NCBI GenBank assembly: GCA_963837175.1
Contig: CAWIMJ010000045.1
Coordinates: 1 to 23,550, forward strand
From: an uncultured Nitrososphaeraceae archaeon
Lineage (GTDB): Archaea > Thermoproteota > Nitrososphaeria > Nitrososphaerales > Nitrososphaeraceae
DNA length: 23,550 bases
Direction of reading: 5' to 3'
Shown: piece by piece, positions 1-20,522 of the stretch
How the letters are laid out: each line of letters starts with the position of its first letter
How positions within the stretch are numbered: position 1 is the stretch's first letter
Position numbers and translations under genes: made by a program
Notes under the pieces: generated by a model
Databases searched by the model: none
What the model saw: the letters and a program-made list of their open reading frames with translations, nothing else
What the model was told of the DNA's origin: nothing

Positions 1-468
1 ATCGTAGTTAGCAATTGTAAGAGCATTAACAACATGCCTGACACCTATACCTTTTCTCTTAACTAATTTGTATAACATTAGAAATGGGTCGATATCGCCT
101 TTAATCTCTTCATAAACCATAATTAGATTGTATAATTGTTTTAGCTTCCAATAATCTTTGTAGAATTTAGTTGCCTCTGATTCTCCCAGGTTTAATGCAA
201 CAACTACTTCTAATGGAGTCTTACCTTCTGAAAAGAGTTTGTAGGCTTGGGCAGATAGAGACAAGTGTTGTTCTTTTTCCTTCGCAGCATCATCATTACA
301 TTGTTCTTCTTTTAATCCTTCAGTCTTCTCTTCCATTACCTTATTCAAAATAACTCCTATATCACGTGGAGATATTCTTGCCTCCTTAGATATTTCACGA
401 TAGGTTTTGCCCTGATTGTAAAGCTCTAGTACAAGTCTTTCTTTTTCCTGTCTAGTTAATATCGTCAT
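1..468 (-). CDS. HTH + coiled-coil hypothetical protein (partial, 3' end beyond the window)
   Basis: Manual translation from ATG at 468 is open to base 1: MTILTRQEKERLVLELYNQGKTYREISKEARISPRDIGVIL...SAQAYKLFSEGKTPLEVVVALNL...ATKFYKDYWKL. It has an N-terminal HTH and is homologous to the broken gene at 8921-9901. It is absent from the ORF track because it has no stop in the window. Confidence 0.85.
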   Translation of the reverse strand, partial: MTILTRQEKERLVLELYNQGKTYREISKEARISPRDIGVILNKVMEEKTEGLKEEQCNDDAAKEKEQHLSLSAQAYKLFSEGKTPLEVVVALNLGESEATKFYKDYWKLKQLYNLIMVYEEIKGDIDPFLMLYKLVKRKGIGVRHVVNALTIANYD

Positions 469-512
469 TATCTTGTACCTTCAAGAAATATAGTATGATG
501 GAAGCTTAAAGC

Positions 513-608
513 TGTTATTGTTATCACTTGTTATCATTTGCTACCAGTTTTTGTTATCATTGCTACCTTCCCGTTACCTCTGTTATCATCTGCTTCCAAT
601 TGTTACCA
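513..608. repeat. Phased array of ~9 TGYTAYCA-like octamers next to the promoter of the HTH gene
   Basis: Units start at 519 tgttatca, 529 tgttatca, 539 tgctacca, 552 tgttatca, 561 tgctacct, 572 cgttacct, 581 tgttatca, 591 tgcttcca and 601 tgttacca, plus a partial unit at 513. A TATA-like CTTTAAG lies on the minus strand at ~504-511. Confidence 0.8.
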
Positions 609-771
609 ATGCACAGTATTTGGATTCACGTCAGTAGTAGCAAACTGTCATATATGCATTAACTATTATGATGAATTTCTTTTGTAATTAACTCTACACA
701 TAATTTACATCATCTTGTACTTACGAATTGCACTATGACTTTATAGATATAGAGGTAAAAGAAGTATGCAA

Positions 772-951
772 AATATCCCCGGTATAACGGGTATCACCGG
801 ATTGATAAATTTAAGCGTGAATTTATCCATTCCTAGCCGGTGATATATGACTTATTGGAATATAATATCCCCGGTGATATCACCGGTCGCTTTGGGCTAA
901 AATTGAGCGTGATTTATAACTCGCCGGGGATTCGGGGATACCGGCGATATT
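772..951. repeat. 180-bp iteron/palindrome element, copy A (putative replication origin)
   Basis: Three 9-mers of the TATCVCCGG type at 774-800, an inverted unit at 837-845, the perfect palindrome CCGGTGATATCACCGG at 871-886, and three inverted units at 924-949. A TTGAGCGTGATTT-like box occurs at 811 and 903. Confidence 0.85.
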
Positions 952-1141
952 ATACATATTTTCATAGTTCGGGCGCTAATGTATTGTTAATACTCTATTG
1001 ATATTAGCTACAATTGGTCTAACCTGCGTTTACCTAGCCGGGTTCAGTCGGGTTTGGTCCCTGCATGTAAAAGGGTTCACCTGCTGCCTATTTAAAGGCT
1101 GCTTGAAACCTAATAACGTTCCAGCATAAGAATTATTTTCG

Positions 1142-1539: not shown

Positions 1540-1751
1540 TTACATATCCATTTTCTTAGAAGCTCACGTTTATCTTTTCGGTATATGTTTGTTAATTTGA
1601 GGAATAATAGATATTGCAATAATAAGAGCAGTAAATTCCAACTTTTAGCGCTAAGCTTTTTGAGCCTTCTCTAACGCACGTTGACTTGATACCTTGACCA
1701 CAGGAGGAGCATTTAGCCATAGATACGTTTTGGCCTTATGGCTTTCTATTA

Positions 1752-1785
1752 AAGTCAACGCTATGCCAGCCTGAGCTACCAAGGC
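1752..1785 (-). tRNA. tRNA-Thr-like 5' half (acceptor strand, D-arm, 5' anticodon stem), degenerate
   Basis: Minus strand reads GCCTTGG TA GCTC AGGCTGGCA TAGC G TTGAC TT, with a TATA-like TTATATATA ~20-27 nt upstream (1803-1812). No T-arm follows. Confidence 0.6.
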
Positions 1786-1871
1786 GCTGCCATGTAACAT
1801 AAATATATATAATAAAGAACAATATTTCTTTGTCTTATAACTTTAAATCATAGAAGACATTATCTTTTTCG

Positions 1872-3332
1872 TTGAGGTATACAAAAGGTCACATCATTAT
1901 ATCTTTTCTATTACTTTTAGTTTTAATTTTAATATTAAGCTTCCTACCAATAATAAATCTAGCACAAGCTTCTAGTTCTTCTGATTCTTCTTCTAGCACT
2001 AGTTCTAGTTCTACAGATGATATCCCTACCACAATTCATAATACAAAGTCTAAACCTCTACCGGGAGGACCTACACTTAATGATGCTAATCTAAACTTAG
2101 AACAGATCTTTACTGGACTTGATCATCCTACCAGTATGGCATTTGTAGGTCCAAATGACATTTTAGTGACAGAAAAAAATACAGGTGTGGTAAAGAGAAT
2201 CATAAATGGTCAATTAAATCCGGAAGCACTTCTTGATGTAAGTGTTGCTAATCTAGCTGAGAGAGGAATGTTAGGAATTGCTGTATCACAACATGAAAAT
2301 GGCACTACTTATGTTTTCTTATATTATACGGAATCTAGCAGCGCAACAGATGGTGATGATGTTGATTCAGAAGAAAATGTATTAGGCAATCGTCTTTACA
2401 GATATGAATTAGTAGACAATCAGTTAGTAAATCCAAAATTACTTTTGGATCTTCCAGCGCATCCACCACCAGGTAGAGAAAATGCTGAAAGAGCGCATAA
2501 TGCTGGTAAGGTAATGATCGGCCCTACTGATAATTATGTATACGTTGGTATTGGTGATGTTATAGGTTATAGAGGACAAGCTCAGAATGTTCTTGATGGA
2601 GCACCACTTGATGGAACTAGCGGCATACTTAGAGTGACACAGGATGGTCAGGTACAACTAAATCCTCCACTAGGATCCACACAGCCAATGAGTCCTTACT
2701 ACTATGCCTATGGTATACGTAATACTTTTGGAATGGACTTTGATCCTATGACTGGAAAATTATGGGATACAGAGAACGGCCATGAATTTGCAGATGAAAT
2801 TAACCTAGTTGAACCGGGATTTAATAGTGGATATTCAAAGATTGAAGGTTTTGTTAAAGATGCAATTAAAGAAGTTTCAGAGGATGATTCAGAGGAAGAT
2901 TCTTCATCAGAGACAACAACAACAGCAACAACAGCAACAACAATAAATCCTGCTACTGATTTAGTTAATTTTGGTGCAAATAGCCAATATAGCGATCCAG
3001 AGTTTGTTTGGACTGCAACACTTGGTGTAACTGCACTTAAATTTCTCAACTCCGATAAATTAGGAAAACAATACCAAAATACTATGTTCATAGGTGATAC
3101 TAATCTTGGCTGGCTCTATAATTTTAAATTAAATCCTGAAAGAACAGGATTGTTGTTTGCTGCTGGTAGTCCGCTTACAGATAAAATTGCAGATACTCCA
3201 GATGAAATGCAGGAAACAATATTTGGAAAAGGATTTGGTGTAATTACTGATATACAAGTTAGCCCGTATGATGGTAGTTTATATGTTCTTACTTATGGTG
3301 GATCAATCTATAAAATATATTCTTCTCTATAG
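1872..3332 (+). CDS. Secreted PQQ-dependent glucose/sorbosone dehydrogenase family protein
   Basis: Hydrophobic N-terminal signal, GLDHPTSMAF, ERGMLGIA, HNAGKVMIGP, YAYGIRNTFGMDFDP, LWDTENG and DEINLVEPGFNSG motifs. Ser- and Thr-rich linkers. Confidence 0.92.
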   Translation: MRYTKGHIIISFLLLLVLILILSFLPIINLAQASSSSDSSSSTSSSSTDDIPTTIHNTKSKPLPGGPTLNDANLNLEQIFTGLDHPTSMAFVGPNDILVTEKNTGVVKRIINGQLNPEALLDVSVANLAERGMLGIAVSQHENGTTYVFLYYTESSSATDGDDVDSEENVLGNRLYRYELVDNQLVNPKLLLDLPAHPPPGRENAERAHNAGKVMIGPTDNYVYVGIGDVIGYRGQAQNVLDGAPLDGTSGILRVTQDGQVQLNPPLGSTQPMSPYYYAYGIRNTFGMDFDPMTGKLWDTENGHEFADEINLVEPGFNSGYSKIEGFVKDAIKEVSEDDSEEDSSSETTTTATTATTINPATDLVNFGANSQYSDPEFVWTATLGVTALKFLNSDKLGKQYQNTMFIGDTNLGWLYNFKLNPERTGLLFAAGSPLTDKIADTPDEMQETIFGKGFGVITDIQVSPYDGSLYVLTYGGSIYKIYSSL

Positions 3333-6521: not shown

Positions 6522-8013
6522 ATGCCTTCCTTTCCTTTTGCATTGATATCAGTCTTTAGAGTAACTACACTATACCTCATCATTATTCTAACTTCACTAT
6601 TAACATCGCCAATAGGATATAATGATATTATTATTACTTATGCTCAGGAAGAGATTGAAGGTGTTAATGCTTCTATTAGAGGAGAAGAAGAAGAGGAAGA
6701 ACTACCATATATCAAAGATCCTAATTTAGGAGTAGAATTAGTTTCCAAAGGACTTGAATTCCCTACTTCTATGGCATTTTTAGGTCCAGACGATATATTG
6801 GTTTTAGAGAAAGAAAAAGGTACAGGTACAGAGGATTGTTAATGGTAATATGTTACTAACTCCTGTTCTTACCGTTAATGTTGCAACTGAAGTTGAAAGA
6901 TGTATGTGCGGAATTGCTGTGTCAAAAAATGATAGCAATGGGAATGTATATGTTTTCTTGTATTTTACTGAAGCAGGTGGAAGTAGTGTCAGTGATTTTA
7001 GTAGTGAGCCTGTAGGTAATCGTCTTTATAGATATCAATGGGTAAATGATCAATTAGTAAATCCTAAACTCTTACTAGACTTACCAGCAACACCTGGACC
7101 ACGTCATAATGGAGGTGTAGTTATGATAGGTCCGGATAATAACGTATACGTAATAATTGGAGATGTTGATGGTCATCAAACTCAAGCTCAAAATATAGAA
7201 TCTGGAGAAGAGCCTGACGGAACTGGCGGTATACTTAGAATTACTCAGGATGGTAAACCGGTAGTAAGTAGTGTTAGTGGTGGTGATGGTGGTATTCTTG
7301 GTAATACTTATCCACTTAACCTATACTATGCATATGGAATACGAAACAGCTTTGGATTTGATTTTGATCCTGTAACTGGGAATTTATGGGATACTGAGAA
7401 TGGTCCAGGCTATGGAGATGAGATTAATTTGATAGAACCTGGATTTAACAGTGGATGGTTAGAAATTACAGGTTTTCCATCATCTTCTTCTTCTACTTCT
7501 ATTGAAGACGACGATGATGATGGATTTAATCCTGATGAAGATTTAGTTAGCTTTGATGGAAAAGGAAAGTACAGTGATCCCGAATTTGAATGGACTTTTA
7601 CTTTAGGACCTACTGCACTAAAGTTTCTTAATTCAGATAAATTGGGAATAGAGTATGTAAATGACATGTTTGTGACAGACGTAGTTACTGGAAGAATTTA
7701 TCATTTTGATTTGAATGAGGACAGAACAGAGCTAATTCTTTCCGGCTTGTTAGCAGATAAAGTCGCTGAAACAAGAGATACTGGTATAGAAAATATATTA
7801 TTTGCAGAAGGGTTTGGTGGAGTTACAGATCTAGAATTAGGTCCTGATGATGGTTATCTTTATGTTGTTTCGCTTGGTCATGGAGCAATATACAAGATTC
7901 TTCCAGCTGCCAATGTAATTCCAACAACTAATGCAGGAGGAGAAGAAAATAAGGATATCAAAGGAGTAGAAGAGGAAGAAGAGGAAGAAGAGGAAGATAG
8001 TGACGAAGATTAG
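6522..8013 (+). pseudogene. Second PQQ-dependent glucose/sorbosone dehydrogenase family gene, one frameshift near 6826
   Basis: 6522..6842 (signal peptide, GLEFPTSMAFLGPDDILVLEK) and 6850..8013 are paralogous to 1872..3332. Removing one G from ggtacaggtacag restores EKGTVQRIVNGNML. Acidic C-terminal tail. Confidence 0.88.
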
Positions 8014-8920: not shown

Positions 8921-9901
8921 TCAGCAGCCATTATTACATTTGTTAGACTGCACGAAACATATTTGACTGGTTACATCATTCTGTACTGTATCATAAAGTC
9001 TGTTAGCTTCGTCTAGTATCATGTCTCTATAATCTTCAATATGCTGCAATGATGATTGTTGGATTGGTACTGATGATAATGATGCATTATCTACTATAAG
9101 ATCATTATATTTGCCAGAGTTCCGTCTTATTGCTTCAATAACTGATGCAAGAGCAAAATGTAAGAGTACTTTACCATCTGTAAGAAACTTACTAACTTCT
9201 TCTTCAACAGTCTTCTTAATTTTAACATATTCTCTGTCATCACCCTTAAAGCGGGTTATAAGAGCTTCTAATCTTGACATTTCATTATTGATATTTTCTG
9301 CCTCTTGTCTTTTGCGTTCACACAACATATTATAGGAATTCAGTAAAGCCTTAGTGCTTGCTATTTCATAATTCAAGGTGTGCAAATAGTTCTCCGTTTC
9401 TTCCCTTGTGCTTTGCATCTTGTCTACTTCATCTTTGGCCTGTTCATAGAGACTTTCCATATAGGGAAGTTTGTAAATAGCAATCTCTACAGCATTAACT
9501 ACTTGCTCAATGCTCATGCCTCTTTCCTTTACTAGTTGTTTGTATAACTTCAAAAATGTCCCTAGTTTACCATTTGTCTCTTTGAATATCGAATTGAGTA
9601 TATGCAGTCGATTTAGTCTCCAATATTCTCTGTACATCTTGGTTACTTCTGGCTCTCTCTGGTTAGTGTGACGGCGACTTCTACTGGTCGCTTACCCTTA
9701 GAATAATTCGTAAGCTCTACTAGACGTCTCTTCTTGCTGTTGCTGATGTTTATTTTGAAGCCGTCTGGATTCTTCTTCCTTTATGATAACGTGTATGTCC
9801 CGTGGTGAGATGTGTTCTATTTCTGCTATTTCAGCGTAGGTCTTATGCTGGTTGAAATATAGATCTATTACCTGCTTTCTTCTATCTTCCGTAATCTGCA
9901 T
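8921..9901 (-). pseudogene. HTH + coiled-coil protein, paralog of 1..468, with two frameshifts
   Basis: 9698..9901 (KTYAEIAEIEHISPRDIHVI...SSRAYELF), a bridging frame SKGKRPVEVAVTL, and 8921..9637 (MYREYWRL...FLKLYK...VVNAVEIA) align collinearly with the 1..468 protein. Shifts occur near 9700 and 9658. Confidence 0.8.
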
Positions 9902-10165
9902 TTATATCAAATAGTATAGATAATCGATCCTTAAAAAAGGAACGTTTTATGATACCATTTACTTTAATCTATATTTCTTTATTACCATCTACTTTCTTCT
10001 TTACAGTATTCTTCTTAAAACAATACAGTGTGAGCAGCTTTAAGATTTACATTATAAAATATCAAATCAATAGCATCTGCATATGCTGATTCAAAGGATC
10101 AACAGCAATAACCAATCAATGTTCATAATTAGATTTTCTGCAGTGAATTAGAGAGAGGTACGTAT

Positions 10166-10333
10166 AATATCACCGGAATCACCGGTATCGCCGGACTAAT
10201 AAATTTGAGCGTGATTTATCCAGTTTTAGCCGGCGATATATAACTTATTAGAATATAATACCCCGGTGATATCGCCGGTAGAATTGAATCTTAATTGAAC
10301 TCAATTTTGAGCATTCCGGGAATTCGGGGATAC
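10166..10333. repeat. Iteron/palindrome element, copy B (last unit missing)
   Basis: tatcaccgg-aatcaccgg-tatcgccgg at 10168-10194, inverted unit at 10230-10238, CCGGTGATATCGCCGG at 10263-10278 and two inverted units at 10316-10332. Box TTGAGCGTGATTT at 10205 with a degenerate copy at 10295. Confidence 0.85.
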
Positions 10334-10487
10334 ACAATGTATTTCACACAACAATAGATTAAATTCTAACAAGCAGGATTGTTACAATTATTCAGCTAGA
10401 CTAATGATGTATCTATCTATACATATATATCAAAAAAAATAAATGGTAGGTACACAGGTTTAGGATTCGCAGTTACAATATCTCCTC

Positions 10488-10845
10488 TCAAGCAGCAGGC
10501 ATGATATTGTAACGAGTTTCCTTTCCTGAACCAATCCTTTGAACTTTGAGCAAGCTATGTCCTTCACTTAGGTAGGCATCGATTTGTTCTGATGTTCTCT
10601 TACTTACAGTCCAGTACTTTTCATACTCCGGATTATTGGGGTCTTGTATTATGTATTGGAATCTCGACTTTTCTTCCATCAAATTCTTTCTCTACTGGCT
10701 GTATTTTCTCTGCATCAAATATCCAATTTGACTTCTCGCCAGGTTGTGGATTGAAGAATTTGCTATCTTTGTTTCTTAGTTCTGCATTGCGTTGAAGATT
10801 TTGTCTCGCTTTTTCACTTAATTCTTGTTCTTTCTGACTTGACAT
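10488..10845 (-). pseudogene. Putative ssDNA-binding (OB-fold-like) protein, one frameshift near 10665
   Basis: 10633..10845 (FFNPQPGEK...EFDG) joins 10488..10682 (RFQYII...KYWTVSK...LKVQRIGSGKETRYNI). The beta-rich pattern resembles phage/plasmid SSBs and the gene lies just downstream of the helicase-like gene. Function is inferred. Confidence 0.5.
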
Positions 10846-10951
10846 ATTCTATTCACTATTTCCTTTGTTCGTTTGGTTTTAGGCAAATTAGCATGACCCA
10901 ACCACGCCATACGAGGAGGCTTTGCCATAATGTGGTCATATTTCTGTGGAA

Positions 10952-13021
10952 TCACTTTGATTGTCCTTTGCATAGATGTTGTTTCATGAACCAAATATCC
11001 CCTTTTAGCTTACAGTTTTGACATGCAAAAATGTCGGAATGTCCTAAACGATGGATAGGAAGAGGAGAAGAAGTATGGATAATATCCCCGGAATCACCGA
11101 TATCACCGGATTGCTCACTTTGTGCTTGATTTTCAATATTTTCTTCCGGGGATATGTCCGGTGATATTGAACCGGTATCCCCGGTGATATCGCCGGGATT
11201 TTCAAGCCGAAGTTGTGCTTGATTTGGGTCTTCCGGTGATACCGGGCATTCCGGCGATATCTTCCGTATCTCTATTAGTGTTGTATTAGTTGAGCTATCT
11301 TTTGGTCTTTCTATTATGATTCCTATCTCTCTAAGATTTGTTGTGATTTCATTTAATCTACGGCTTAAAATGTTAGGAGCTTTAGGCCACAGATTGCTTC
11401 TTGTATCTATTTTTAGTTTTTCTGCAGCCTGCTCTAAATCATATAGTAGTTCGCTAGATGTACCTCTCCATATTCTACCGTCTTCTCCTTTCTTTAATTC
11501 TACAAATTTTATTATAGCAGTTGCGATTAGGCTGGATTCTAATGCTTTATCATTTTGTGCAGCAATATTTTTGTAGTATGCATTAAGAAACGCATTTTCT
11601 GGATATCCTAAGCATCTAGATATCACCTCACAAATCTCAGCCCAGTCAGCCATACGTGGATATTTTTTTAGCTGTACTTCTTTGAGTCTGTTTAATACTT
11701 TAACTAATGAATCAAAGATAAATCCCAAGACTTGTGGCTTTATTCTGTCATACTGTTTCCATAAGTGCTTCAGCTTACGTTTCTTCTCTTCAGGTATCCG
11801 TTTTAGATGTAAGATTAGTCCTCTCTCTAAAAGGTCTGGTCTTGTTGCTGCTACGTTTATTCCATTAAAACCCACGCATCTTCTAAATCTATAGATAAAG
11901 TCATCATCGTCTGAGTATAGGATTCTCTTTGAAAAGCCGTTACCAGTCACAGCTCTACATAACACATCAGAGATCCATGGTGGAATTTCTGAGACATTAT
12001 CATAATAAGCTATAAAGTTATGTGATAATTGTTGTACTAACTCTGCAACTTCTTTTGGAAACGACAGAGTAAGAGCTCCACATGGGTCCACTAGTGTCTT
12101 TATGAACTCCTGGAATGTCGATTTTGCCGCTCCCTGTTCACCATGAGGAATAAGAGCAGTTTTTGGAATATCTGGCGGTATAAATAAGGCTATGGTGTAG
12201 ACTTCAGCTAGAATTCTGTTTTCCTTATCATCCTTTGGTAAATTAGTAAGGTCCATAAATTGGGAGAATATGTCTTGAGGATATTTCTTTGTAGGATAGA
12301 CTTGGGGTAATTGGCTTCTATATCTCTTAAAGAGAATAGTTGATGAAGAAGATGAAGATGATGATGAAAGAAATCCATGCTTCTCAATCTTCCAGCCATT
12401 CTTTGTTATCTTTACAATCTCCCAGTTTTTATTGGTTAGATCATAGTAAATGACATTATCATCATCGTTTGCATCAGGATCTGAATCAATGTTACCAGCG
12501 ACTCTTACCTCAAGCTTTCTCTCATTATATAGTTCCTCTGCTTCCATTTTCAAAATAGTTTGAATTCGTGCAGCATCATCATTATTTAGCAGAGGAGATG
12601 GTGATGACAATGTTGTGTCACCTATAGTATCATATTCTTCTTGGTCATCAAAATTTTCTGCATCTAATAACTTCTCCTGCTGCTGTTCCTTTCTATAACC
12701 ATAATAGGCTTTAACAATCCAATCCTTAAAGCGGTTACTTCTGATTGGTATCGTTTCTATATGATCTCTTACTTTAATTGCTGCATATGGCTCACCAATC
12801 TGATCAACAAAAAGTTCTAGACATTTACTTTTAATTACTCCAAGTGCATCTTGAGCTTTGGTAATATTCTGTTTTTTATTTTCCACTCTTCCATTCTTCT
12901 TGTCTTTCTTTTCTTTCCTATTATTGTCATTTGTATTTGGTCTAGCAGGAGAAGTATTATTACCAGCGCTGCTACCAAAAACTTTGCCAACTAAACCATC
13001 GATGGAGGAAGAAGACGTCAA
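10952..13021 (-). CDS. Replication-associated P-loop ATPase/helicase (SF3/AAA+-like) with a C-terminal Zn-binding motif
   Basis: Walker A GEQGAAKST, Walker B-like IAYYDNVS, motif-C-like GFNGIN, and RPDLLERG. A wHTH-like segment (WRGTSSELL...WPKAPNILSRRLNE) and a terminal CQNC...HLC follow. No primase domain was recognised. Confidence 0.75.
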   Translation of the reverse strand: MTSSSSIDGLVGKVFGSSAGNNTSPARPNTNDNNRKEKKDKKNGRVENKKQNITKAQDALGVIKSKCLELFVDQIGEPYAAIKVRDHIETIPIRSNRFKDWIVKAYYGYRKEQQQEKLLDAENFDDQEEYDTIGDTTLSSPSPLLNNDDAARIQTILKMEAEELYNERKLEVRVAGNIDSDPDANDDDNVIYYDLTNKNWEIVKITKNGWKIEKHGFLSSSSSSSSSTILFKRYRSQLPQVYPTKKYPQDIFSQFMDLTNLPKDDKENRILAEVYTIALFIPPDIPKTALIPHGEQGAAKSTFQEFIKTLVDPCGALTLSFPKEVAELVQQLSHNFIAYYDNVSEIPPWISDVLCRAVTGNGFSKRILYSDDDDFIYRFRRCVGFNGINVAATRPDLLERGLILHLKRIPEEKKRKLKHLWKQYDRIKPQVLGFIFDSLVKVLNRLKEVQLKKYPRMADWAEICEVISRCLGYPENAFLNAYYKNIAAQNDKALESSLIATAIIKFVELKKGEDGRIWRGTSSELLYDLEQAAEKLKIDTRSNLWPKAPNILSRRLNEITTNLREIGIIIERPKDSSTNTTLIEIRKISPECPVSPEDPNQAQLRLENPGDITGDTGSISPDISPEENIENQAQSEQSGDIGDSGDIIHTSSPLPIHRLGHSDIFACQNCKLKGDIWFMKQHLCKGQSK
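11081..11261. repeat. Iteron/palindrome element, copy C, in frame within the helicase-like gene
   Basis: Triad at 11083-11109, inverted units at 11146 and 11158, CCGGTGATATCGCCGG at 11181-11196 and an inverted triad at 11233-11259. Box TTGTGCTTGATTT at 11120 and 11213. It encodes the ISP..SP../GD..GD.. low-complexity tail. Confidence 0.9.
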
Positions 13022-13428
13022 GGTTCAAACCTCACTCTTAGATTTCTGACTATATTGAGATGATAATAATCAAAATCTAAATTTTCAAAGATACGTCCTA
13101 CAGCCTGTATTATCACATATTGTAGGGTTTCATGACAGGAAATGATACTTTCAATTTGCTTTCTTACTTTTGGTGTTAAATCTCGGATATTTATAACAAA
13201 TTCTGGTGATGGCCTTGCAATTGGAATCCACTTCATAAGTTCCCTGGCTTGTCTATAATATTTCTTAACTGGTATTGATCTGCCGTTCTCTTCAATAGTA
13301 ATACTTTCTGTAGTACGAGCCAGATTAAGGAATACTTCATCAACTATGCGTTCGATAGTCCATATTTCTTCTTGTTTGTCTTTTTCTTGTAATGCTGCCT
13401 GAGGTGTATTCTCTGATATAGTATTCAA
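13018..13428 (-). CDS. Hypothetical protein in the element operon
   Basis: 136-aa ORF with 4-bp start/stop overlaps with both neighbours (13425-13428 and 13018-13021). Confidence 0.75.
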   Translation of the reverse strand: MNTISENTPQAALQEKDKQEEIWTIERIVDEVFLNLARTTESITIEENGRSIPVKKYYRQARELMKWIPIARPSPEFVINIRDLTPKVRKQIESIISCHETLQYVIIQAVGRIFENLDFDYYHLNIVRNLRVRFEP

Positions 13429-13640
13429 TTCACATCAGTTCCTTCGCTCTTATTGGAAATTCTCAGTAGAATTCCTTCTTCTGTAGCTTCTTCTTCAAGC
13501 CAAGTTTCATCATCAATACACAAGCGCTTGACTAAAGATTCATGAATTACTACAAAGTTGATATCGGCAATGCTATGAACCTTTTTCTTAGGATTAGTAG
13601 TAGAGTAACCTTTATTTTCCTTAAAAGTGTAATTTGTCAT
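13425..13640 (-). CDS. Small AbrB/SpoVT-like DNA-binding protein
   Basis: The pattern FVVIHESLVKRLCIDDETWLEEEATEEGILLR resembles the swapped-hairpin AbrB fold. ATGA overlap with the upstream gene. Confidence 0.6.
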   Translation of the reverse strand: MTNYTFKENKGYSTTNPKKKVHSIADINFVVIHESLVKRLCIDDETWLEEEATEEGILLRISNKSEGTDVN

Positions 13641-13885
13641 GTGGATGATTCACCCTCTCTTCTAGGGATGGTGGTTGTTGCAATCGTTGTAGTCTGTCCG
13701 TGGCTACCAACCTTAGCAGACTGCAACGATTCAATTTTGTTTTCGAAAATTTTGACATTCCTTCTGCAGGATGGACAGGTCGCGTAGTAAACGAAGCGGC
13801 CGAGGTACATCCAAGCGTATCCGCAGTTTGAATTTGGACAGCGAATCCAGCTGCCTTTTTGAGACTCTTTGTTCTTATTGACCAT
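13637..13885 (-). CDS. Small zinc-ribbon protein, first gene of the element operon
   Basis: CPNSNC-x13-CPSC motif, with TATA-like sequence in the 13886-13954 divergent intergenic region. Confidence 0.75.
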   Translation of the reverse strand: MVNKNKESQKGSWIRCPNSNCGYAWMYLGRFVYYATCPSCRRNVKIFENKIESLQSAKVGSHGQTTTIATTTIPRREGESST

Positions 13886-13954
13886 TCCTCTTATGCTTAT
13901 GTATATTTCGATATATAAGGGCCATATAGCTTACTATATAGTGCACTAATCTCT

Positions 13955-14582
13955 ATGCAAAGATATAATGAACAATTAGGAAATCTACAACAAGAAATAC
14001 TAAAGCACATATTTGAATGTGATAAGATAGAGACAGTCAGCCATTTAGCCAGGTCTCTAAAACGTAAACAACCTACAATTTTCAAGAGTGTTCAATTACT
14101 ACATAAATTCAATTATTTAGAGTCAAAATTAAATACACGTTATTATACTCCTGGCGGAAAAGAGAGGGAGATAGCAGCAACTGAAAAAGGTGTGGAGAGC
14201 GATTACTTTAGGTATTCCTCTTGACCGAATTGAAATTTACCACCAAAATTATAAACCCTTCACATTTTTAAATGTAGAAAATTTAGGCTATATCTGGAAA
14301 ATATTAAATCCATATAATAAACGACAACTTATTGTTAAGAAGGCAATGCACTATGCATTAGATAACAACTATTTTGATAAAGGAAAATTTAGATGTTTAA
14401 ACCAAGATGAATCAGAGAAACTTAAACTATTCATTGCATTAGAATGCGTTAAGTCGTCAATAAACGAAGTCTCTACCTTAAAGTCATTTATAGATAAATA
14501 TGGTCTAGACAAAATCTTCTTAAAGAAACATTTAACCAAACAAAAGCAATATCTTGATTCACTAATTAAGACACTGGATTGA
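13955..14582 (+). pseudogene. Winged-helix (MarR-like) regulator of the element, one frameshift near 14190
   Basis: LQQEILKHI...TVSHLARSLKRKQPTIFKSVQLL...ATEKG wHTH in 13955..14224 continues in 14190..14582. It is divergent from the replication operon. Confidence 0.7.
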
Positions 14583-14594
14583 CTTTTCATTTTG

Positions 14595-16013
14595 CTAATT
14601 TTCCTTGAGTATTTCTAATAGTTTGGCCGGGTTCTTTAGTAAATTCATGATCTCCTTCTGCGCTTCTTGCATAAACAAGATTTGTTCTTTTAGACCTTGA
14701 ACTTCTGTATCTTTCTGATTCTCTAAAGTTTCATTATAAGCATCATATGTTAATACCATCCTGCATTTAGCACAGAACTTGCTATCTGGTTTATTTGGTT
14801 CATTGCAATTAGGACATTGTTTTGGTTTTAATGCATCTGTTAGATTCTGATCTTTTGTAACTATTCCATATGCTTCTAATAGACTTTCACTTGCTTCATT
14901 TCCAAAATAATGTAAGTATTTCAAATGCATATGTGATTCTGGTGACCAGCCTGAAAATAACCGTAAAGTATGCTCTTTTAGAATTTTGGATTTCTCTGTT
15001 ATACTAGAATGTCTCCTAATATAGGGATTCCATGGTTTCTTTAATAGTTCTTTTATCTCTTGTTTATCTTCTTCTGGAATATCTCCTCTTCTTTCTTCTG
15101 CTGTTGCTACTAATTTTGGAAATAATCCTTTCTTATAATTATCATAAATCTTAGTGAGTGTTTTAGGTTTTAGACGTCTTCCTATACTCTTAGCATAACC
15201 ACAAATTAATGGAGCATTAAGATTTCCTTGTTGTGGATGTTCATCTATCCAATCTTTAACAAAAGGAATAGAATCTATTAGCGGGATAGTTCTACTGCCT
15301 GTCTTCCCATTTACAAGGACCTCTGCATATTGTTGTCCTGCGCTTGTAGTTTTAAAAGTAATATCTTTAAGTCTTAGTTTTAGAATTTCATGTGGTCTAC
15401 ATCCTGTATCTCTTGAAATCATATGATAACATTTATCACGTTTACTAGGACAGTATTTTAGAAATAAAAGGTCATCTTCCATAGTCCATAAATCACTTGG
15501 TTTGTAAATCGAAGTTTCTTTTCTTCTTAATTGAAGGATATTTTCTACTACTTGAGGCTTTACTCTTTTATGCGGTTCAATATCAGGATAATATAACCAT
15601 TTGAAGAATTTAATCAGTAAAACAGTATATTGATTATAAGTTCCAATCCATTTGTGCAAAGGGTCAGAGTTTTCAGGTTTGCGGTAACTATCAAGAAATA
15701 ACAAAATATCTTCTCTCAACATTTCTTTGAATGATTTCTTGTTATGATAAAACTTTGATAATTGGGTTAATACGTTGATATAATTTCTCTTATGATTATC
15801 TGAAAGATTAACCTCTGTTATGGTATTTAATATAAACTCTACAATAGCGATAGCGTTCTCTTTTGATACATTTCCTAAAAGGTTAGTAAATCGTGGTTCT
15901 AAACCTTCTGTTATTAGATTGATTTTTCTTTCTTCGGAATACGAATCCCCATAACGAGAATATCGTCTATTATCATATTTTGCATTTGCAGTTGTAATAT
16001 TATTATCAATCAA
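14595..16013 (-). CDS. Tyrosine recombinase/integrase with C-terminal zinc ribbon (SNJ2-like architecture)
   Basis: TGCRPHEIL (catalytic R), GKTG (K), PYIRRHSS (YxxRH), GWSPESHMHLKYLH (W and Y), then CPNC...CAKC and a short coiled coil. Confidence 0.9.
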   Translation of the reverse strand: MIDNNITTANAKYDNRRYSRYGDSYSEERKINLITEGLEPRFTNLLGNVSKENAIAIVEFILNTITEVNLSDNHKRNYINVLTQLSKFYHNKKSFKEMLREDILLFLDSYRKPENSDPLHKWIGTYNQYTVLLIKFFKWLYYPDIEPHKRVKPQVVENILQLRRKETSIYKPSDLWTMEDDLLFLKYCPSKRDKCYHMISRDTGCRPHEILKLRLKDITFKTTSAGQQYAEVLVNGKTGSRTIPLIDSIPFVKDWIDEHPQQGNLNAPLICGYAKSIGRRLKPKTLTKIYDNYKKGLFPKLVATAEERRGDIPEEDKQEIKELLKKPWNPYIRRHSSITEKSKILKEHTLRLFSGWSPESHMHLKYLHYFGNEASESLLEAYGIVTKDQNLTDALKPKQCPNCNEPNKPDSKFCAKCRMVLTYDAYNETLENQKDTEVQGLKEQILFMQEAQKEIMNLLKNPAKLLEILKEN

Positions 16014-16181
16014 CCTGTTCTCTTTGTTATTAAAAGAGACTAATAAGGTAGTATTCCAAACTATATTACAATAATGTAATAACGCATATACTATAATTTG
16101 TCAGAAGAGGCCTCTATTATTCTATATGTGTAAAGTAATAGTAGTATCACTAGCAGTAGTATAAGGTTATTACTTTTGTAA

Positions 16182-18476
16182 CTATCCTTTTGTTGTTGTT
16201 GCTGTTGTTGTAGTTCTTGTACTAGTAGTAGTAGATGGCATGTACACTTCCTTTTGATCTTTGTCTGAATAGATTTCCTCCTCCTGTCCTTTCTTTGTTG
16301 ATTTTCTCACTCCAAACTTTGGCTTATACCTTCCAAGTAATAGTGAGTTTCCAACTACAGTTACAGAGCTCATTGCCATTGCAAGACCTGCTAGCATTGG
16401 AAGCCATCCAAATATTCCTACACCAAGAAAAGGTACTAATGCGCCTGCAGCGATTGGAATCAAACCTGTATTATAAACAAATGCCCAAAATAGGTTTTGT
16501 TTTATCTTTGACACTGTCTTTCTTCCAAGATCAAGTGCTGTGACAACATCCCTCAGATCATCTTTTATCAGTATAATTCCTCCGGTCTCTTTGGCAACAT
16601 CGGTACCAGAACCTATTGCTATTCCTAGATCAGCTCTTGCTAATGCAGGTGCGTCATTAATACCGTCACCTACCATTGCAACTACTTTTCCTTCTTCAGC
16701 TTTTAGTTTAGAGATTACTTGTTCTTTTTGTTGTGGCAATACTTGAGCAATAATCCTACTAATACCGAGTATGGATGCAACTGCTCTGGCAGTTCTTTCA
16801 TTATCTCCTGTTAACATAATTACTTCTATTCCCATTGATTTTGTAAGTATATCAATGGCCTCTTTTGCATTTTCTTTTATAGTATCTGCTAGAGCGATTA
16901 TTCCTGCAAGTTTCTTATCAATCGCAACAAGAGTAGCTGTTTTTCCTTGAATTTCAAGTTGTTTAAGAGTTGTATCTAGGCTTTCAGTAACTGGTATATG
17001 ATTATTATCCATTATTAGTTTTCTATTTCCAATAATAATTGTATGATCTGCATATACTGCTCTAAGACCATAACCCGATACAGCTTCAAATGAATCTGGA
17101 TTTGATACCAGAATTCCCTTTTCTTTAGCATAATTAACAACTGCTTGACCTAGAGGATGTTCTGATCCTGATTCTGCAATTGCAGCAAGCCTAAGCAATT
17201 CATTTTCACCTATTCCAGACAAATCCACTATATCAGTTACAGACGGCTTACCTTTTGTCAAGGTCCCAGTTTTATCAAATACTATTGTATTTACTTTCCT
17301 TGCAATTTCCAAATACTCTCCTCCTTTAAATAGAATACCATTTTCAGCTCCTTTTCCAGCACCCATCATTAACGCTGCAGGTGTAGCTATTCCAAGAGCA
17401 CAGGGACATGCTATGATTATTACAGATACAAATGCCAAAAGTGAAAATGTCAGTCCTATATCACCAATAAAATACCATCCAAGTCCTACTCCTACCGCTA
17501 TTGCTAAAACTGCTGGGACAAAGTATTTAGCAACTTGGTCTACTAACCGTTGCATTTGTGCCTTTCCTGTTCGTGCTTCTTCAACTAGCGTGATAATCTG
17601 CGAAAGTACAGTATCCTGTCCTACTTTTGTTGCTTTGACTTTCAGCAGCCCACTTTTGTTGATAGTAGCACCTATAACTTCGTCGCCTTTAGATTTATCT
17701 ACTGGAATACTTTCACCTGTTATGGCTGATTCATCTATAGAAGAAGAACCGTCTATCACAATTCCATCAGTCGGTATTCTTTCTCCAGGTCTTATAACTA
17801 AGACATCACCTTCTCGAATCTGTTCAACAGGTATTTCTATCTCCTGCTGCTTCTCATCCTCCTGCTCTTCATTTTTTCCTTTTTCTCTCCTTATTACCCT
17901 AGCCATTCTGGGCTGAAGATCAAGTAATTTTCTTACCGCACTGGATGCTTTCTCTTTAGTTCTTGTTTCAAGTAATCTTCCAACTAATATTAAGGTGATA
18001 ATAATTGCTGCAGTTTCAAAATACACTGATTCAAATGGAAAATATCCAGGAGCCATAGTAACTATTGCACTATATAAATAGGCAGCAGTTGTTCCTATTG
18101 CGATAAGTGTATCCATATTTGATGCCCTAGCCTTAATACCGTCCCATAAACCTCTATAGAATCTCCAACCTATCCAAAACTGTAAAGGAGTAGCTAATGC
18201 TAGCATTATATAATTACTATAATGCATAAAAGCCATAGGAAAGAGAGCGCCAAACTGTGCAGGAAACATATGGGGTAAGGTAAGAATTACCAAAGGTATT
18301 GTTAGTGCAATGCTTATAGCAACATAGATCTTTAGTTTTCTTAGTTCTTTTTCAGGCTGAGTAAACTCCTCTAGGCATTGCTTACTGCAAAAGTAATATT
18401 CTCTTCCATCTTTATTATACCTTATAGAACTGGGCTTTTCTTCTACAAACATTCCACAAACAGGATCTTTAGCCAT
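16182..18476 (-). CDS. copA: Cu(I)-translocating P1B-type ATPase with N-terminal YHS/TRASH domain
   Basis: DPVCGM...YYFCSKQC, TGES, CPCALG, DKTGT, SEHPL, GDGINDAP, TM7 YN and TM8 MAMSS. Confidence 0.95.
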   Translation of the reverse strand: MAKDPVCGMFVEEKPSSIRYNKDGREYYFCSKQCLEEFTQPEKELRKLKIYVAISIALTIPLVILTLPHMFPAQFGALFPMAFMHYSNYIMLALATPLQFWIGWRFYRGLWDGIKARASNMDTLIAIGTTAAYLYSAIVTMAPGYFPFESVYFETAAIIITLILVGRLLETRTKEKASSAVRKLLDLQPRMARVIRREKGKNEEQEDEKQQEIEIPVEQIREGDVLVIRPGERIPTDGIVIDGSSSIDESAITGESIPVDKSKGDEVIGATINKSGLLKVKATKVGQDTVLSQIITLVEEARTGKAQMQRLVDQVAKYFVPAVLAIAVGVGLGWYFIGDIGLTFSLLAFVSVIIIACPCALGIATPAALMMGAGKGAENGILFKGGEYLEIARKVNTIVFDKTGTLTKGKPSVTDIVDLSGIGENELLRLAAIAESGSEHPLGQAVVNYAKEKGILVSNPDSFEAVSGYGLRAVYADHTIIIGNRKLIMDNNHIPVTESLDTTLKQLEIQGKTATLVAIDKKLAGIIALADTIKENAKEAIDILTKSMGIEVIMLTGDNERTARAVASILGISRIIAQVLPQQKEQVISKLKAEEGKVVAMVGDGINDAPALARADLGIAIGSGTDVAKETGGIILIKDDLRDVVTALDLGRKTVSKIKQNLFWAFVYNTGLIPIAAGALVPFLGVGIFGWLPMLAGLAMAMSSVTVVGNSLLLGRYKPKFGVRKSTKKGQEEEIYSDKDQKEVYMPSTTTSTRTTTTATTTKG

Positions 18477-18522
18477 ATATTCTACATGAGACTATAGAAA
18501 AACAGATGTATAAGTCTAGACC

Positions 18523-18536
18523 TTTACAATTGTAAA
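18523..18536. promoter_or_regulatory. Perfect 14-bp palindrome, candidate copper operator
   Basis: TTTACAATTGTAAA sits mid-way in the 106-bp divergent copA/regulator intergenic region. Confidence 0.6.
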
Positions 18537-18582
18537 AATATAATAGACCATCTGACTAAAGAAATGTGTGCATATATAGTAG

Positions 18583-19143
18583 ATGCCTTTTCAATTAGAC
18601 AATTATGACATATCTATCCTAAGAGCACTATTAAAGGATGGTCGTAAATCATTTCGTGAGATCTCTAGAGAAACTGGCATAACAACACCAACTGTTAAGG
18701 CAAGATTCAACAGGCTTGTCAATGTGGGATTTATAAAAGCAGTATCTCCAATCCTTAATTTTGACATAGTGGAAGAAGGAAGTATTGGCAAATCAGAATT
18801 AGAAATTAAGAACAACAAGAAAAACAATAATCAAGGTGCTGAGGCAATGAAAAAAGATGAAGATGAAGAATGGATAAAGGAAAACCGAAATGGTCAACCC
18901 AAATATCGAAATCAAAATCAGCAAAAACAACAACTGCAAGATGCCAAATTCAAAATCAAAAAAGGAATGAAAATCAAGTTAGATTGCGAATTTTGTAAAG
19001 GACCCATTTTAGGTACTCCTCACTTATTCAGGTTTGCAAATTATGAGCGATTTTTCTGTTGTACTGAATGCAGGGCCGCATACAAGAAAAAATATGCAGG
19101 AAGAATAGAGTCGATAAAAAGAAGGTTTGAAGGAACAGAATAA
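18583..19143 (+). CDS. AsnC/Lrp-type HTH + TRASH domain copper regulator (CopT/CopR-like)
   Basis: LDNYDISILRALLKDGRKSFREISRETG N-terminal HTH and C-terminal CEFC...FFCCTEC. Divergent from copA. Confidence 0.88.
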   Translation: MPFQLDNYDISILRALLKDGRKSFREISRETGITTPTVKARFNRLVNVGFIKAVSPILNFDIVEEGSIGKSELEIKNNKKNNNQGAEAMKKDEDEEWIKENRNGQPKYRNQNQQKQQLQDAKFKIKKGMKIKLDCEFCKGPILGTPHLFRFANYERFFCCTECRAAYKKKYAGRIESIKRRFEGTE

Positions 19144-19222
19144 TAACAGGCTTCTAATAAATCCATGTTCGATATGATGGCTCTGCTGCTACTGATATGC
19201 AACTATGAAATACTGGTGTTGT

Positions 19223-19369
19223 TCAGTATCCATATTTGCTCGGGTTCTGGTCAAACTGACTTTTACAGTGTGCAGAACATAGATAGATTTTCTGTCCATT
19301 TACTCCTGAAACATGTTGTGCTTTCTTTTCATCAACCATCATATTGCATACAGGGTCTTTTTGTGCCAA
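19223..19369 (-). CDS. 48-aa YHS/TRASH metallochaperone (CopM-like)
   Basis: Manual translation from TTG 19369 gives MAQKDPVCNMMVDEKKAQHVSGVNGQKIYLCSAHCKSQFDQNPSKYGY, similar to the CopA N-terminal domain. It is below the ORF-track length cutoff. Confidence 0.88.
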   Translation of the reverse strand: MAQKDPVCNMMVDEKKAQHVSGVNGQKIYLCSAHCKSQFDQNPSKYGY

Positions 19370-19418
19370 TCTATCTATAGTAAATTAAACAGAAATATAA
19401 CACCATATGTTTACAAAT

Positions 19419-20522
19419 GTGCATTGTTGCATAACTCATTAATCTCTATGCGGCGTTACTTTTTGAAGCTATTTTCTTGTAATAAATGTATTGTATAATA
19501 ATGATGCTTTTAGCATCATTTCCTTAACCATGTTTGAATATTTCCTTGCTGATACACATTTTCCAAACATCCTTTTAATGGATGGAAGAGAATACTACTG
19601 TCTCTGCTACTACCCATCTGTATCCATACATAACCATACATAACTAACACTATCCTTTCCATTTTTCAAAATTTTTCAGCTGTTGTATAGTACAATAATA
19701 TTTCTTAGATGAGAATAGGTTATCTTGTCGGCAGACGAATTCCTCCTTCCTTACCTTGATTGGCAGCAGCTTCAATGCCATTATTATCAAAAAGATATCT
19801 GAAATTCTCATTATTATCATAAGCCCTTCATCTGCAATCACTCTTTTTTTTACATCGTTATTCTCAGCAGCATTTTCTATCAGCTTCTTTATTTAGCACC
19901 ATCATTCCATCATATGTACTTCTTTGGTTGTAACTTCTAAGGATACAATTTTTCTTTTTCTTGATATCTACTGCGACATGTATTTTGAGGTATCCTTTTC
20001 TTATATTCCATTTGTGAGCTAACCACCACTCTCCTCCTCTATTAGTTACCTTGATCCCAGTACTATCTAATAATACTAATACTATGACAATATCATTTGC
20101 TATTCTTTTGTTAATTCTAATATCTAGTTTGTTTAGTCTTCTTTGTTTATTGTACTGTAATCTGGAATAGAGCGTATTTTACTACCAGTATATACTCTCT
20201 AACAACACCTTCAGTCTGTCTGTCTATATGATGGTAAATGAAAATATGCTCCTCATATAACCAATCAAGCAATTGAACAAAAGAATTTGGATATCTATAG
20301 GATGTACCACCACCTTCCTTTCCTTACCATTATTCATATTGTCAAATTCATTATCCCAGCTATCTATCAATAACATCAAAATCCAGAATTACCTCTCCAC
20401 GTCTGACTAATGATTCATTATAGTTATCCCAGTTAACCACTATAGTTGTCATTATAATATCTAAGCTAAATCCAGCTAGGTCAGTTCATACTTACAGAAG
20501 AGTCAGTTATACAACAATGCAC
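19419..20522 (-). mobile_element. Degenerate IS5-family insertion sequence (~1.1 kb)
   Basis: Terminal inverted repeats GTGCATTGTTGCATAACT (19419-19436) and AGTTATACAACAATGCAC (20505-20522) match at 17/18. The flanks tttacaaat and tttccaact (7/9) may be an eroded target duplication. Confidence 0.85.
19469..20452 (-). pseudogene. IS5-family DDE transposase pseudogene
   Basis: Frame-hopping translation gives NWDNYNESLVRRGEVILDF, PDYSTI, DSTGIKVTNRG(G)EW, KGYLKIHVAVD, AD/GAYDNNENFRYL, IKVRK, YGYRWVVAET..FSSI/KRMFG and MMLKASL(L)YN. It has many frameshifts and stops. Confidence 0.88.

Follow-up and report, generated by a model that had tools for sequence, protein, structure and literature searches.

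A 23,550-nt contig from the draft genome of an uncultured Nitrososphaeraceae archaeon carries an array of short repeats, or iterons, inside the gene for a replication initiator-helicase (Rep), and further copies of the same array standing free elsewhere in the genome. The contig (C45, G000:C45:1-23550) was analyzed as a whole and is hereafter called the window; the genome comprises 3.81 Mb in 58 contigs, with about 35% G+C. Three copies of the iteron element, A, B and C, lie in the window. Copy C is located within the Rep open reading frame (ORF) and is probably a Rep-binding array that acts as the origin of an integrase-bearing element. Copies A and B lie upstream of genes for helix-turn-helix (HTH)/coiled-coil proteins. 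We favor, with some confidence, a reading in which this Rep family bears a Rep-binding, origin-type array in a translated linker of its own gene, and in which A and B are genus-specific orphans of such arrays that travel with HTH genes and have largely outlived them.

BLAST of the window element against its own genome identifies six full-length copies:

C45:745-967, element A: free-standing, dyad-symmetric iteron array (BLAST, profile and unit map)
C45:10154-10333, element B: free-standing, with its last distal iteron truncated (BLAST and unit map)
C45:11061-11277, element C: iteron array within the Rep ORF (BLAST, ORF list and unit map)
C8:88431-88653, element D: free-standing (BLAST)
C34:76230-76457, element E: free-standing (BLAST)
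C49:25207-25419, element F: within a truncated helicase reading frame (BLAST)

The unit that defines the element, ATCNCCGG, is found 24 times in the window where 0.51 would be expected, a count that none of 100 shuffles reached, and 23 of these units fall in A, B and C. Across the 3.81 Mb of the genome there are 162 exact units (0.04 per kb), compared with 6-9 per 200-bp element, an enrichment of about 1000-fold. A repeat finder reports three direct copies at 759-941, 10153-10333 and 11068-11251 (families D3 and D5), and A, B and C share one orientation in the window. A profile built from the six copies recovers all six loci (E <= 1e-60), with a further partial match on contig C16. It also matches the opposite strand of each copy (E 1e-10 to 1e-20), and the element is therefore a large imperfect palindrome.

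Read in the direction of the window, the first half of the array consists of three units with a 9-nt period, a spacer and a single inverted unit. The center follows, and then a palindromic pair, a spacer that repeats the first spacer, and three inverted units, again with a 9-nt period. The triplets at the two ends face each other and the palindromic pair sits in the middle. In element A the units begin at 775, 793, 837, 867/871/879, 924, 932 and 941, and an AT-rich center spans 845-866 (TATATGACTTATTGGAATATAATA); every free-standing copy has such a center. The unit maps of A, B and C and the reverse-strand self-match place opposed short repeats on both sides of the array center and, in the Rep gene, directly after the initiator body. 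An earlier annotation of the window, made from the sequence alone (the first-pass annotation), had described A and B as more similar to each other than to C, with a common spacer and the same shortened TTCGGGGATA unit. The alignment bears this out in both respects: identity is 77% over 182 nt for A-B and 70% over 206 nt for A-C by BLAST, which matches B to C over only 64 nt, and identities over the core columns are 73 (A-B), 62 (A-C) and 60 (B-C). Element B is 86% identical to copy D on contig C8. The word ATC[ACG]CCGG is common to A, B and the Rep-embedded C, so the candidate cis site of the free-standing copies matches the initiator that would serve as its helper.

The gene that contains copy C is the following:

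10952-13021, minus strand: D5-like superfamily 3 (SF3) initiator-helicase (Rep), 689 amino acids (ORF, AlphaFold and Foldseek)

Copy C covers about residues 580-655 of this protein. Rep has a Walker A motif (GEQGAAKST) but no match in Pfam or PHROGs, and searches of the PDB by sequence and by profile give chance-level matches only. Its relationship to known initiators is apparent from its predicted structure. An AlphaFold model built from 27 sequences (predicted local distance difference test score, pLDDT, 73; predicted template-modeling score 0.68) has a folded body and a small C-terminal domain. Foldseek places the body in the D5-like SF3 fold with 54 PDB matches at E <= 0.001, the best of which are African swine fever virus (ASFV) PrimPol, Cch of the staphylococcal cassette chromosome mec (SCCmec), NrS-1, PriRep of the Staphylococcus aureus pathogenicity island (SaPI) SaPI5, poxvirus D5/E5 and PriRep1 (E 1.6e-5 to 4e-4). 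The C-terminal part divides into a probable winged helix (about residues 522-587), a disordered linker (591-653) and a Zn ribbon (655-689). In the whole-protein model, helices at 522-535 and 549-565 and strands at 568-571 and 583-587 are consistent with a winged helix, and the linker, with pLDDT below 35, lies between folded domains. The protein is widespread. It has 453 metagenomic relatives at E <= 0.001 among 8000 scored candidates, and 10 of the 120 relatives listed are longer proteins with a PrimPol domain (PF09250). Within the family we sampled 201 genomes of 18 genera, seven of them from the genus of the window genome, and 67 of these genomes in 13 genera have a match, a tally that includes one weak match, in the unpublished genome G160.

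The array is read through in frame. The Rep ORF translates copy C as ...EIRKISPECPVSPEDPNQAQLRLENPGDITGDTGSISPDISPEENIENQAQSEQSGDIGDSGDIIHTS..., followed by HRLGHSD..C..C......H.C, and the peptide of the copy runs ...SPECPVSPEDPNQAQ..GDITGDTGSISPDISPE..NQAQ..SGDIGDSGDI.... Because the linker motif and the Cys/His Zn-ribbon tail stay in frame in nine of the 15 homologues printed, we conclude that the array is translated. Copy F likewise lies within a helicase reading frame, here a truncated one, and has decayed to three strict units.

We compared the array with the corresponding region of distant Rep lineages, taking the DNA for residues 560-689 at 16 helicase loci in other genera. At nine of these loci a single 8-mer is present 4-7 times and in both orientations, at offsets that match those of C: about +90, +140-160 and +188, together with a triplet at 9-nt spacing (+232/241/250). 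A tenth locus has a three-copy word, which is weak. The words themselves are specific to lineages: CGACGATA, ATCGTTCG, ATCGTCAA, ATCGTCCA (found twice), AGGCGATA, GGACGGTA, AACGATAT and ATCGTCCG. In windows of the same size elsewhere in each distant gene, no 8-mer has more than 2-3 copies. The peptides encoded by a word and by its reverse complement are unrelated (SPE-type and GD-type), yet both words change in step from lineage to lineage while their places remain unchanged. Such joint change of both orientations at fixed places is predicted for binding sites of one protein and not for selection on a disordered peptide. The pattern in these sequences points to the array in the Rep gene as a DNA-level, probably Rep-binding feature, and we infer from it, and from the likeness of the design to that of SaPI and SCCmec, that replication probably starts there.

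The free-standing copies are confined to one genus. We searched the six other congeneric genomes and 194 genomes of 17 other genera and scored all candidates; the element matches 17 places in five of the six congeners, which places it in six of the seven sampled genomes of the genus, and it has no match in the 194 genomes of other genera. The 17 matches comprise 13 good free-standing copies, two helicase 3' remnants accompanied by the small ORFs p70 and p64, and two degenerate solitary pieces. To see whether other iteron types also give rise to orphans, two queries were run in two other genera, g13 and g14. No orphan array was found in g14; in g13 every good match falls on a helicase gene or pseudogene, with the exception of the orphan-like locus L099 near a contig end.

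Several features connect the free-standing copies to the 3' end of a rep gene. A tree of 18 copies, which excludes the partial copy L036 and the later-found L105, L106 and L109, as does the conservation count below, separates 15 free-standing copies from three in-gene copies (C, F and the G041 remnant), each clade having support of 100/100. All free-standing copies are without two central units, and the AT-rich center results. Homology to the rep gene extends some 20-45 nt past the iterons on both sides. Between element and HTH gene, tblastn recovers a decayed Zn-ribbon tail (residues 616-687, 31-55% identity) at L032, L035, L038 and L041, and copy D has the same longer element-to-HTH spacing as these copies, 472 bp. 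Since several copies keep the decayed tail, the free-standing copies derive from the 3' end of rep. The first-pass annotation saw no helicase remnant beside A, and had named decayed ATPase genes as the mark of simple remnants. We agree on the first point: a family hidden Markov model (HMM) run on the genome in six frames finds, apart from the intact gene, just the fragment on C49 and a weak match on C6 (E 0.009), and detects no helicase body beside any free-standing copy, distal flanks included. The idea of simple remnants thus holds for the Zn-ribbon tail of four loci and fails for the ATPase body. On the distal side the copies share an extension of 100-240 nt in two variants, after which the DNA is unrelated; past the extension the flanks differ in all pairs except L033/L035, and the copies hence occupy different genomic sites. 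From these sequence comparisons we conclude that the orphan type arose from a rep 3' end and then multiplied, and that the copies are not fresh helicase scrap generated at each site.

Iterons are better conserved among the orphans than the DNA around them. When 15 of the free-standing copies are aligned, iteron columns have a mean pairwise identity of 0.90, other columns of the element 0.75 and the 40-nt flanks 0.68. This hints at constraint, because G+C-rich words should be the first to decay in a genome of 35% G+C. In soil and 'organism A' contigs of runs X7 and X8, window positions ~11056-11058, in the region of the rep Zn tail, are joined to ~759-760, in an A-like array, with 17-19 other letters between them. 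Other populations may have a rep gene that carries an array of the A type, or the join may be a repeat artifact of mapping at 90% likeness. The contigs of the four soil-metagenome runs are short and unable to show copy number, circles or excision.

The genomic setting of the orphans is recurrent. The HTH/coiled-coil loci in the window are:

1-468, minus strand: HTH/coiled-coil gene A, first 156 codons; subfamily 1, with weak HTH Pfam matches
469-707, minus strand: conserved upstream part of the HTH unit; homology with other HTH units ends at about 707
8921-9901, minus strand: HTH/coiled-coil gene B, a subfamily 2 pseudogene

As the first-pass annotation had described, A and B lie upstream of two clearly diverged HTH genes in the same relative orientation. 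The distance from the end of the element to the start codon is 277 bp for A (codon at 468) and 253 bp for B (codon at 9901), and the proteins are 38% identical over 151 amino acids, the two subfamilies being about 40% identical. Other particulars of that annotation require correction: the contig begins within gene A, what was taken as gene B is a pseudogene, and C lies inside the helicase ORF. Gene A is 75% identical to an intact copy at C34:76724-77677. Gene B has in-frame TAA codons at 9698-9700 and 9692-9694 and one stretch that is readable only in another frame; with its stops read through, it is 67% identical to a copy on C29 over 239 amino acids.

Across the six congeneric genomes, 18 copies outside helicase genes could be assessed, and for 15 of them an HTH gene in the same orientation starts at a distance of 200-475 bp. 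L040, L106 and L109 are the exceptions, and L035, at a contig end, is unassessable. All four free-standing copies in the window genome are paired in this way, and D, L082, L084 and L085 have in common a contiguous, homologous module of about 1.9 kb (element, tail and HTH unit). Viewed from the gene, the association is different. Of the 30 loci of the HTH/coiled-coil family in this genome, 20 include an N-terminus; iteron units occur in the 500 bp upstream of four of these (A, B, D and E) and are missing from the other 16, an outcome that the first-pass annotation had named as one that would refute its proposal. Element F is 3.4 kb from an HTH gene. What HTH copies have in common is a unit of about 1.5 kb, from -240 to +1300 around the gene start, with flanks that are unrelated between copies.

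The annotation had also supposed that element and gene are inherited as one unit, and here too the evidence is against it. Elements beside subfamily 2 genes (B, L034, L040, L044 and L045) are 75-93% identical to those beside subfamily 1 genes, and the two subfamily labels are intermixed on the element tree. Because near-identical elements adjoin protein subfamilies of ~40% identity, the histories of element and gene are decoupled. Moreover, breaks or truncations affect at least 10 of the 15 HTH genes in modules (B, D, L032, L033, L034, L038, L039, L044, L045 and L105). Those of D, L033, L038 and L039 have frame changes, those of L032 and L105 are truncated or rearranged, and those of L034, L044 and L045 keep only 29-47 codons.

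The HTH protein family has more than 1200 metagenomic relatives, hypothetical proteins of Nitrososphaerota. Its model is all-helical, with three HTH units, a long coiled coil and no catalytic domain, and fold searches give no match at E <= 0.001; the weak matches (E 0.014-0.1) are with Cbp1, which binds CRISPR repeats, and with the bipartite DNA-binding domains of transposases. We considered a Tc1/mariner- or IS630-type transposase and rejected it on the basis that the model has no DDE/D domain and the protein matches no Pfam transposase family; 'transposase' on its relatives is an automatic source label only. Four direct TGTTATCA repeats lie at 519-588, 50-120 bp upstream of gene A, among six matches in the window (1.47 expected), and may be the protein's own operator. 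TTA(T/C)CAT words, similar to the TGTTATCA repeats, occur upstream of gene B.

We envision the following scenario. In the working gene the array stands directly after the probable C-terminal winged helix and is read through as a disordered linker to the small Zn ribbon. By analogy with the Reps of SaPI and SCCmec, Rep hexamers could bind the two half-sites via the winged helix and open the DNA between them. A, B, D, E and at least 13 copies in five congeners would then be orphaned origins, whose ancestor was presumably a rep 3' end that had lost the helicase body and two central units, leaving an AT-rich center. This remnant may have come to adjoin an HTH/coiled-coil gene; the cassette, or the array with its short distal extension, could have spread to many sites in the genus, often among piled-up element remnants, and most cassette HTH genes would have decayed afterwards. 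Of this scenario, the anatomy of the array, its place within the ORF, its covariation across the family, the Rep fold and the link to HTH genes are observed; binding by Rep, a function as origin and any activity of the orphans today are inferred.

A number of results weigh against this proposal. The repeats are absent from the linker DNA of six of the 16 distant helicase loci, and the arrangement is thus not universal. Mononucleotide shuffles have a mean top 8-mer count of about 2 but occasionally reach 5-9 with AT-only words; as shuffles sometimes equal the observed count, our argument is one of word identity in both orientations and of position, not of count. The in-gene copies C, F and L086 have two further units in place of the AT-rich center, where a melting site would be sought. 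No intact helicase was found in the five congeneric genomes with orphan copies, all of which are drafts of 40-470 contigs from which episomes may be missing. Finally, the conservation of iteron columns is possibly inflated, since iterons anchor the alignment and the copies are mutually related. Alternatively, the repeats could be a by-product of an acidic peptide linker (SPE.., GD..GD) and the free-standing copies neutral pseudogene scraps. The region is coding in C, its peptide motif is conserved in homologues, the 9-nt period is divisible by three, and F has decayed within its truncated helicase. We regard this as quite improbable nonetheless, given that the reverse-complement word encodes an unrelated peptide and that, from one lineage to the next, the two orientations change in step. 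Disorder is predicted for the linker, which would leave no fold to maintain, and non-coding orphans keep their G+C-rich units better than their spacers.

The other alternatives concern what the orphans do. The first-pass annotation proposed an active non-autonomous satellite, in which element and HTH gene depend on the autonomous element's Rep for replication and on its integrase for movement. Part of this idea has gained support: the HTH pairing recurs, copies lie in different flanking contexts, a contiguous module is shared by four loci, the iteron word is that of the intact Rep gene resident in the genome, and iterons are better kept than spacers. SaPI-type satellites, moreover, use the same kind of Rep and origin, at least in the published passages that describe them. 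The mobile part finds no such support. We found only chance 10-14-mers, and no att direct repeats, around the helicase element of the window and around copy E; the ends are marked by a shared distal junction motif only, and use of the integrase is not evident. Most module HTH genes are damaged, 16 of 20 HTH genes are without an element, the two histories are decoupled, the five congeners with modules have no intact Rep in their draft assemblies, and soil contigs, which could hardly show an excised or circular form, show none. We therefore consider an active satellite unlikely. A different cis site is to our minds an equally slim prospect: a partition or regulatory site of the neighboring HTH protein, a recombination site, or a decoy kept by the host to titrate Rep. 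A DNA-binding protein with several HTH units and an extended coiled coil is the constant neighbor of the array, fragments resembling tRNA and a junction of repeat families are found on the immediate distal side of the array, and ectopic lambda origins arrest lambda replication, according to the part of the literature that treats them (PMC4488673). However, most HTH genes have no array and possess their own, different upstream repeats, and other genera tie the array to Rep genes, with an HTH gene within 1.5 kb at one of 29 helicase loci. In view of the dyad symmetry of the element we also considered a miniature inverted-repeat transposable element (MITE), which would have terminal inverted repeats and target duplications, but did not adopt this reading.

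Orphaned arrays of the kind we favor need not be inert. They might be working parts, either minimal satellites that fire when a plasmid or virus with a matching Rep enters the cell or host decoys that titrate this Rep and confer an incompatibility-type immunity to the element family. We find this doubtful, and the same low expectation attaches to the thought that better conservation of iterons than of spacers is a footprint of selection on such working arrays.

Copy C belongs to a larger integrated element, of which the window contains the following parts in addition to rep:

10363-10951, minus strand: tail of the helicase-bearing element, with ORFs p64 (10488-10682) and p70 (10633-10845)
13018-16013: rest of the presumed autonomous integrated element (ORF list)
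13018-13428, 13425-13640, 13637-13885 (Zn finger), 13955-14224 and 14190-14582: small ORFs
14595-16013, minus strand: tyrosine integrase

The integrase-bearing element presumably spans from about 10363 to about 16013. A block that starts at 10363 and runs through p64, p70 and the tail of rep into C is shared with two remnants in the congeneric genome G041 (84% identity over 891 nt). Window positions 10363-11231 are 84% identical to G041:C36, where p64 and p70 are 86-90% identical. Copy B ends at 10333, outside the shared block, and the corresponding place in G041 has no B-like copy; B and its pseudogene are thus neighbors, and not parts, of the helicase element. A search for an empty site of locus E in five congeners returned matches to dispersed repeats only, without synteny.

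The distal side of A looks, from its sequence, like piled junctions of integrated elements at a re-used site. The relevant feature is:

968-1090: distal extension of A, common to E, L032, L038 and L041, which ends in a 30-nt motif at 1050-1079

This motif occurs seven times in the genome with up to six mismatches (the window, C1:14574, C5:64598, C17:26506, C18:46964, C34:96526 and C36:41233) and may be an att core. In the window it is located where the distal extension of A meets another repeat family, also present at C34:96.4 kb and C29:15.3 kb. Beyond it, a 32-nt piece at 1187-1218 matches the region of the anticodon and T arm in tRNA-Thr(GGT) at 91% identity and ends right after the T loop, and a 15-nt match to the 5' end of the same tRNA lies 550 nt further on, at ~1771-1785 (region ~1750-1786, minus strand). 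Rfam (E <= 1) and ARAGORN call no RNA gene in the window, so these tRNA-like pieces are known from BLAST alone.

Other repeated sequences accompany the elements and their HTH genes. N-terminal fragments of tyrosine recombinases form a second multi-copy family, at C8:87743-88378 and on about 12 other contigs; one fragment ends 53 nt from element D and others lie just upstream of HTH genes (C25, G041:C15). A 360-bp segment at C34:78559-78920 (L087:10559-10920), with a 111-codon membrane-protein ORF, has dozens of listed matches across five congeners and lies 1-2.5 kb past the HTH gene in three module copies. Elsewhere in the window, paralogous glucose/sorbosone dehydrogenase-like genes at 1872-3332 and 6522-8013 share 73-76% DNA identity over several stretches, the second being split into ORFs 6522-6842 and 6850-8013. 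A P-type metal ATPase gene (764 amino acids, minus strand) stands beside an AsnC/TRASH-domain regulator at 16182-19143, directly adjoining the integrase. A 7.5-kb contig of run X8 covers 14710-19445, and its sequence left of 14710 differs from the window; another population thus has the ATPase linked to the integrase end but not to the helicase side. Tandem repeats of 141-144 bp at 21804-22634 encode an NHL-type beta-propeller protein (families D1, D2 and D6).

If our reading is correct, an archaeal Rep family writes its origin into a translated, disordered linker, with binding words that co-evolve by lineage, and nature would here provide an instance of one set of bases serving both as protein-binding array and as coding sequence. 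The arrays are concrete candidate sites of 8-9 nt, with about ten natural variants of specificity, each paired with its own Rep. To our knowledge, ammonia-oxidizing archaea still lack genetic tools. Should origin function be confirmed, the arrays would provide parts for a vector system in these archaea, and the orphans a test case for satellite or decoy behavior. The view that no replication origin has so far been defined for integrated elements of ammonia-oxidizing archaea is supported by the sources to the extent of their available text. A full-text literature match for 'Nitrososphaera' with 'iterons' returned nothing, and the accessible portion of the survey of Krupovic et al. (2019) mentions no origin, in-rep iterons or orphan arrays, 'iteron' being present in a reference title only (PMC6563490). 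That survey describes thaumarchaeal integrase-bearing elements with Reps of the archaeo-eukaryotic primase/superfamily 3 helicase (AEP/S3H) type, integration at tRNA genes and tandem arrays at re-used sites, in the sections relevant here (PMC6563490). The element in the window resembles these in its integrase, in a Rep of the primpol-S3H kind and in what appear to be piled junctions at a re-used site.

Phage P4 offers a precedent for a second array. Its ori and crr are two arrays of the same iterons in one replicon, crr lying away from the origin, and both are bound by the primase-helicase. The proximity of B to C, 0.7 kb, recalls this arrangement; B, however, is not a copy of C (60% in core columns), belongs to the orphan clade and lies outside the shared block. 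Among archaeal plasmids, the Rep of the window element is akin to ORF904 of pRN1 from Sulfolobus, which has a primase-polymerase plus helicase design, as longer homologues of the window protein with PF09250 would. Sequence downstream of the pRN1 rep gene is essential for replication, in the account given in PMC4234260. Unlike the array described here, the pRN1 origin is outside the ORF, and the pertinent text of that paper describes no iteron array in coding sequence (PMC4234260).

The closest parallels are found in bacterial systems, and each accounts for a different part of the arrangement. In phage lambda, the ori iterons fall in the linker between two domains of O. They lie within the reading frame of this initiator gene, as the portion of PMC4488673 on the origin sets out, and the array in Rep is similarly placed inside its initiator's own frame. 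Unlike Rep, O is not a helicase, and the lambda origin, which has no dyad, is made of four direct 19-bp iterons next to an AT-rich stretch. The Reps of SaPIs are self-loading helicases that use a winged helix at the C-terminus to bind iterons; these flank an AT-rich center immediately downstream of rep and point in opposite directions, in the passages of PMC9371898 that deal with them. Cch2 of SCCmec binds repeats just downstream of its own gene, according to the corresponding part of PMC7581432. The system described here is like these in its Rep fold, its probable C-terminal winged helix, the iterons that follow directly and their two opposed sets, and, in the orphans, in the AT-rich center. 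It differs from them in units of 8-9 nt with a 9-nt period, in an array inside an ORF that runs on to a Zn ribbon, in an archaeal host, and in in-gene copies without an AT-rich center. The novelty of the proposed arrangement would thus be one of combination, with a Rep and origin of the SaPI type joined to a lambda-type location of the origin inside the initiator gene.

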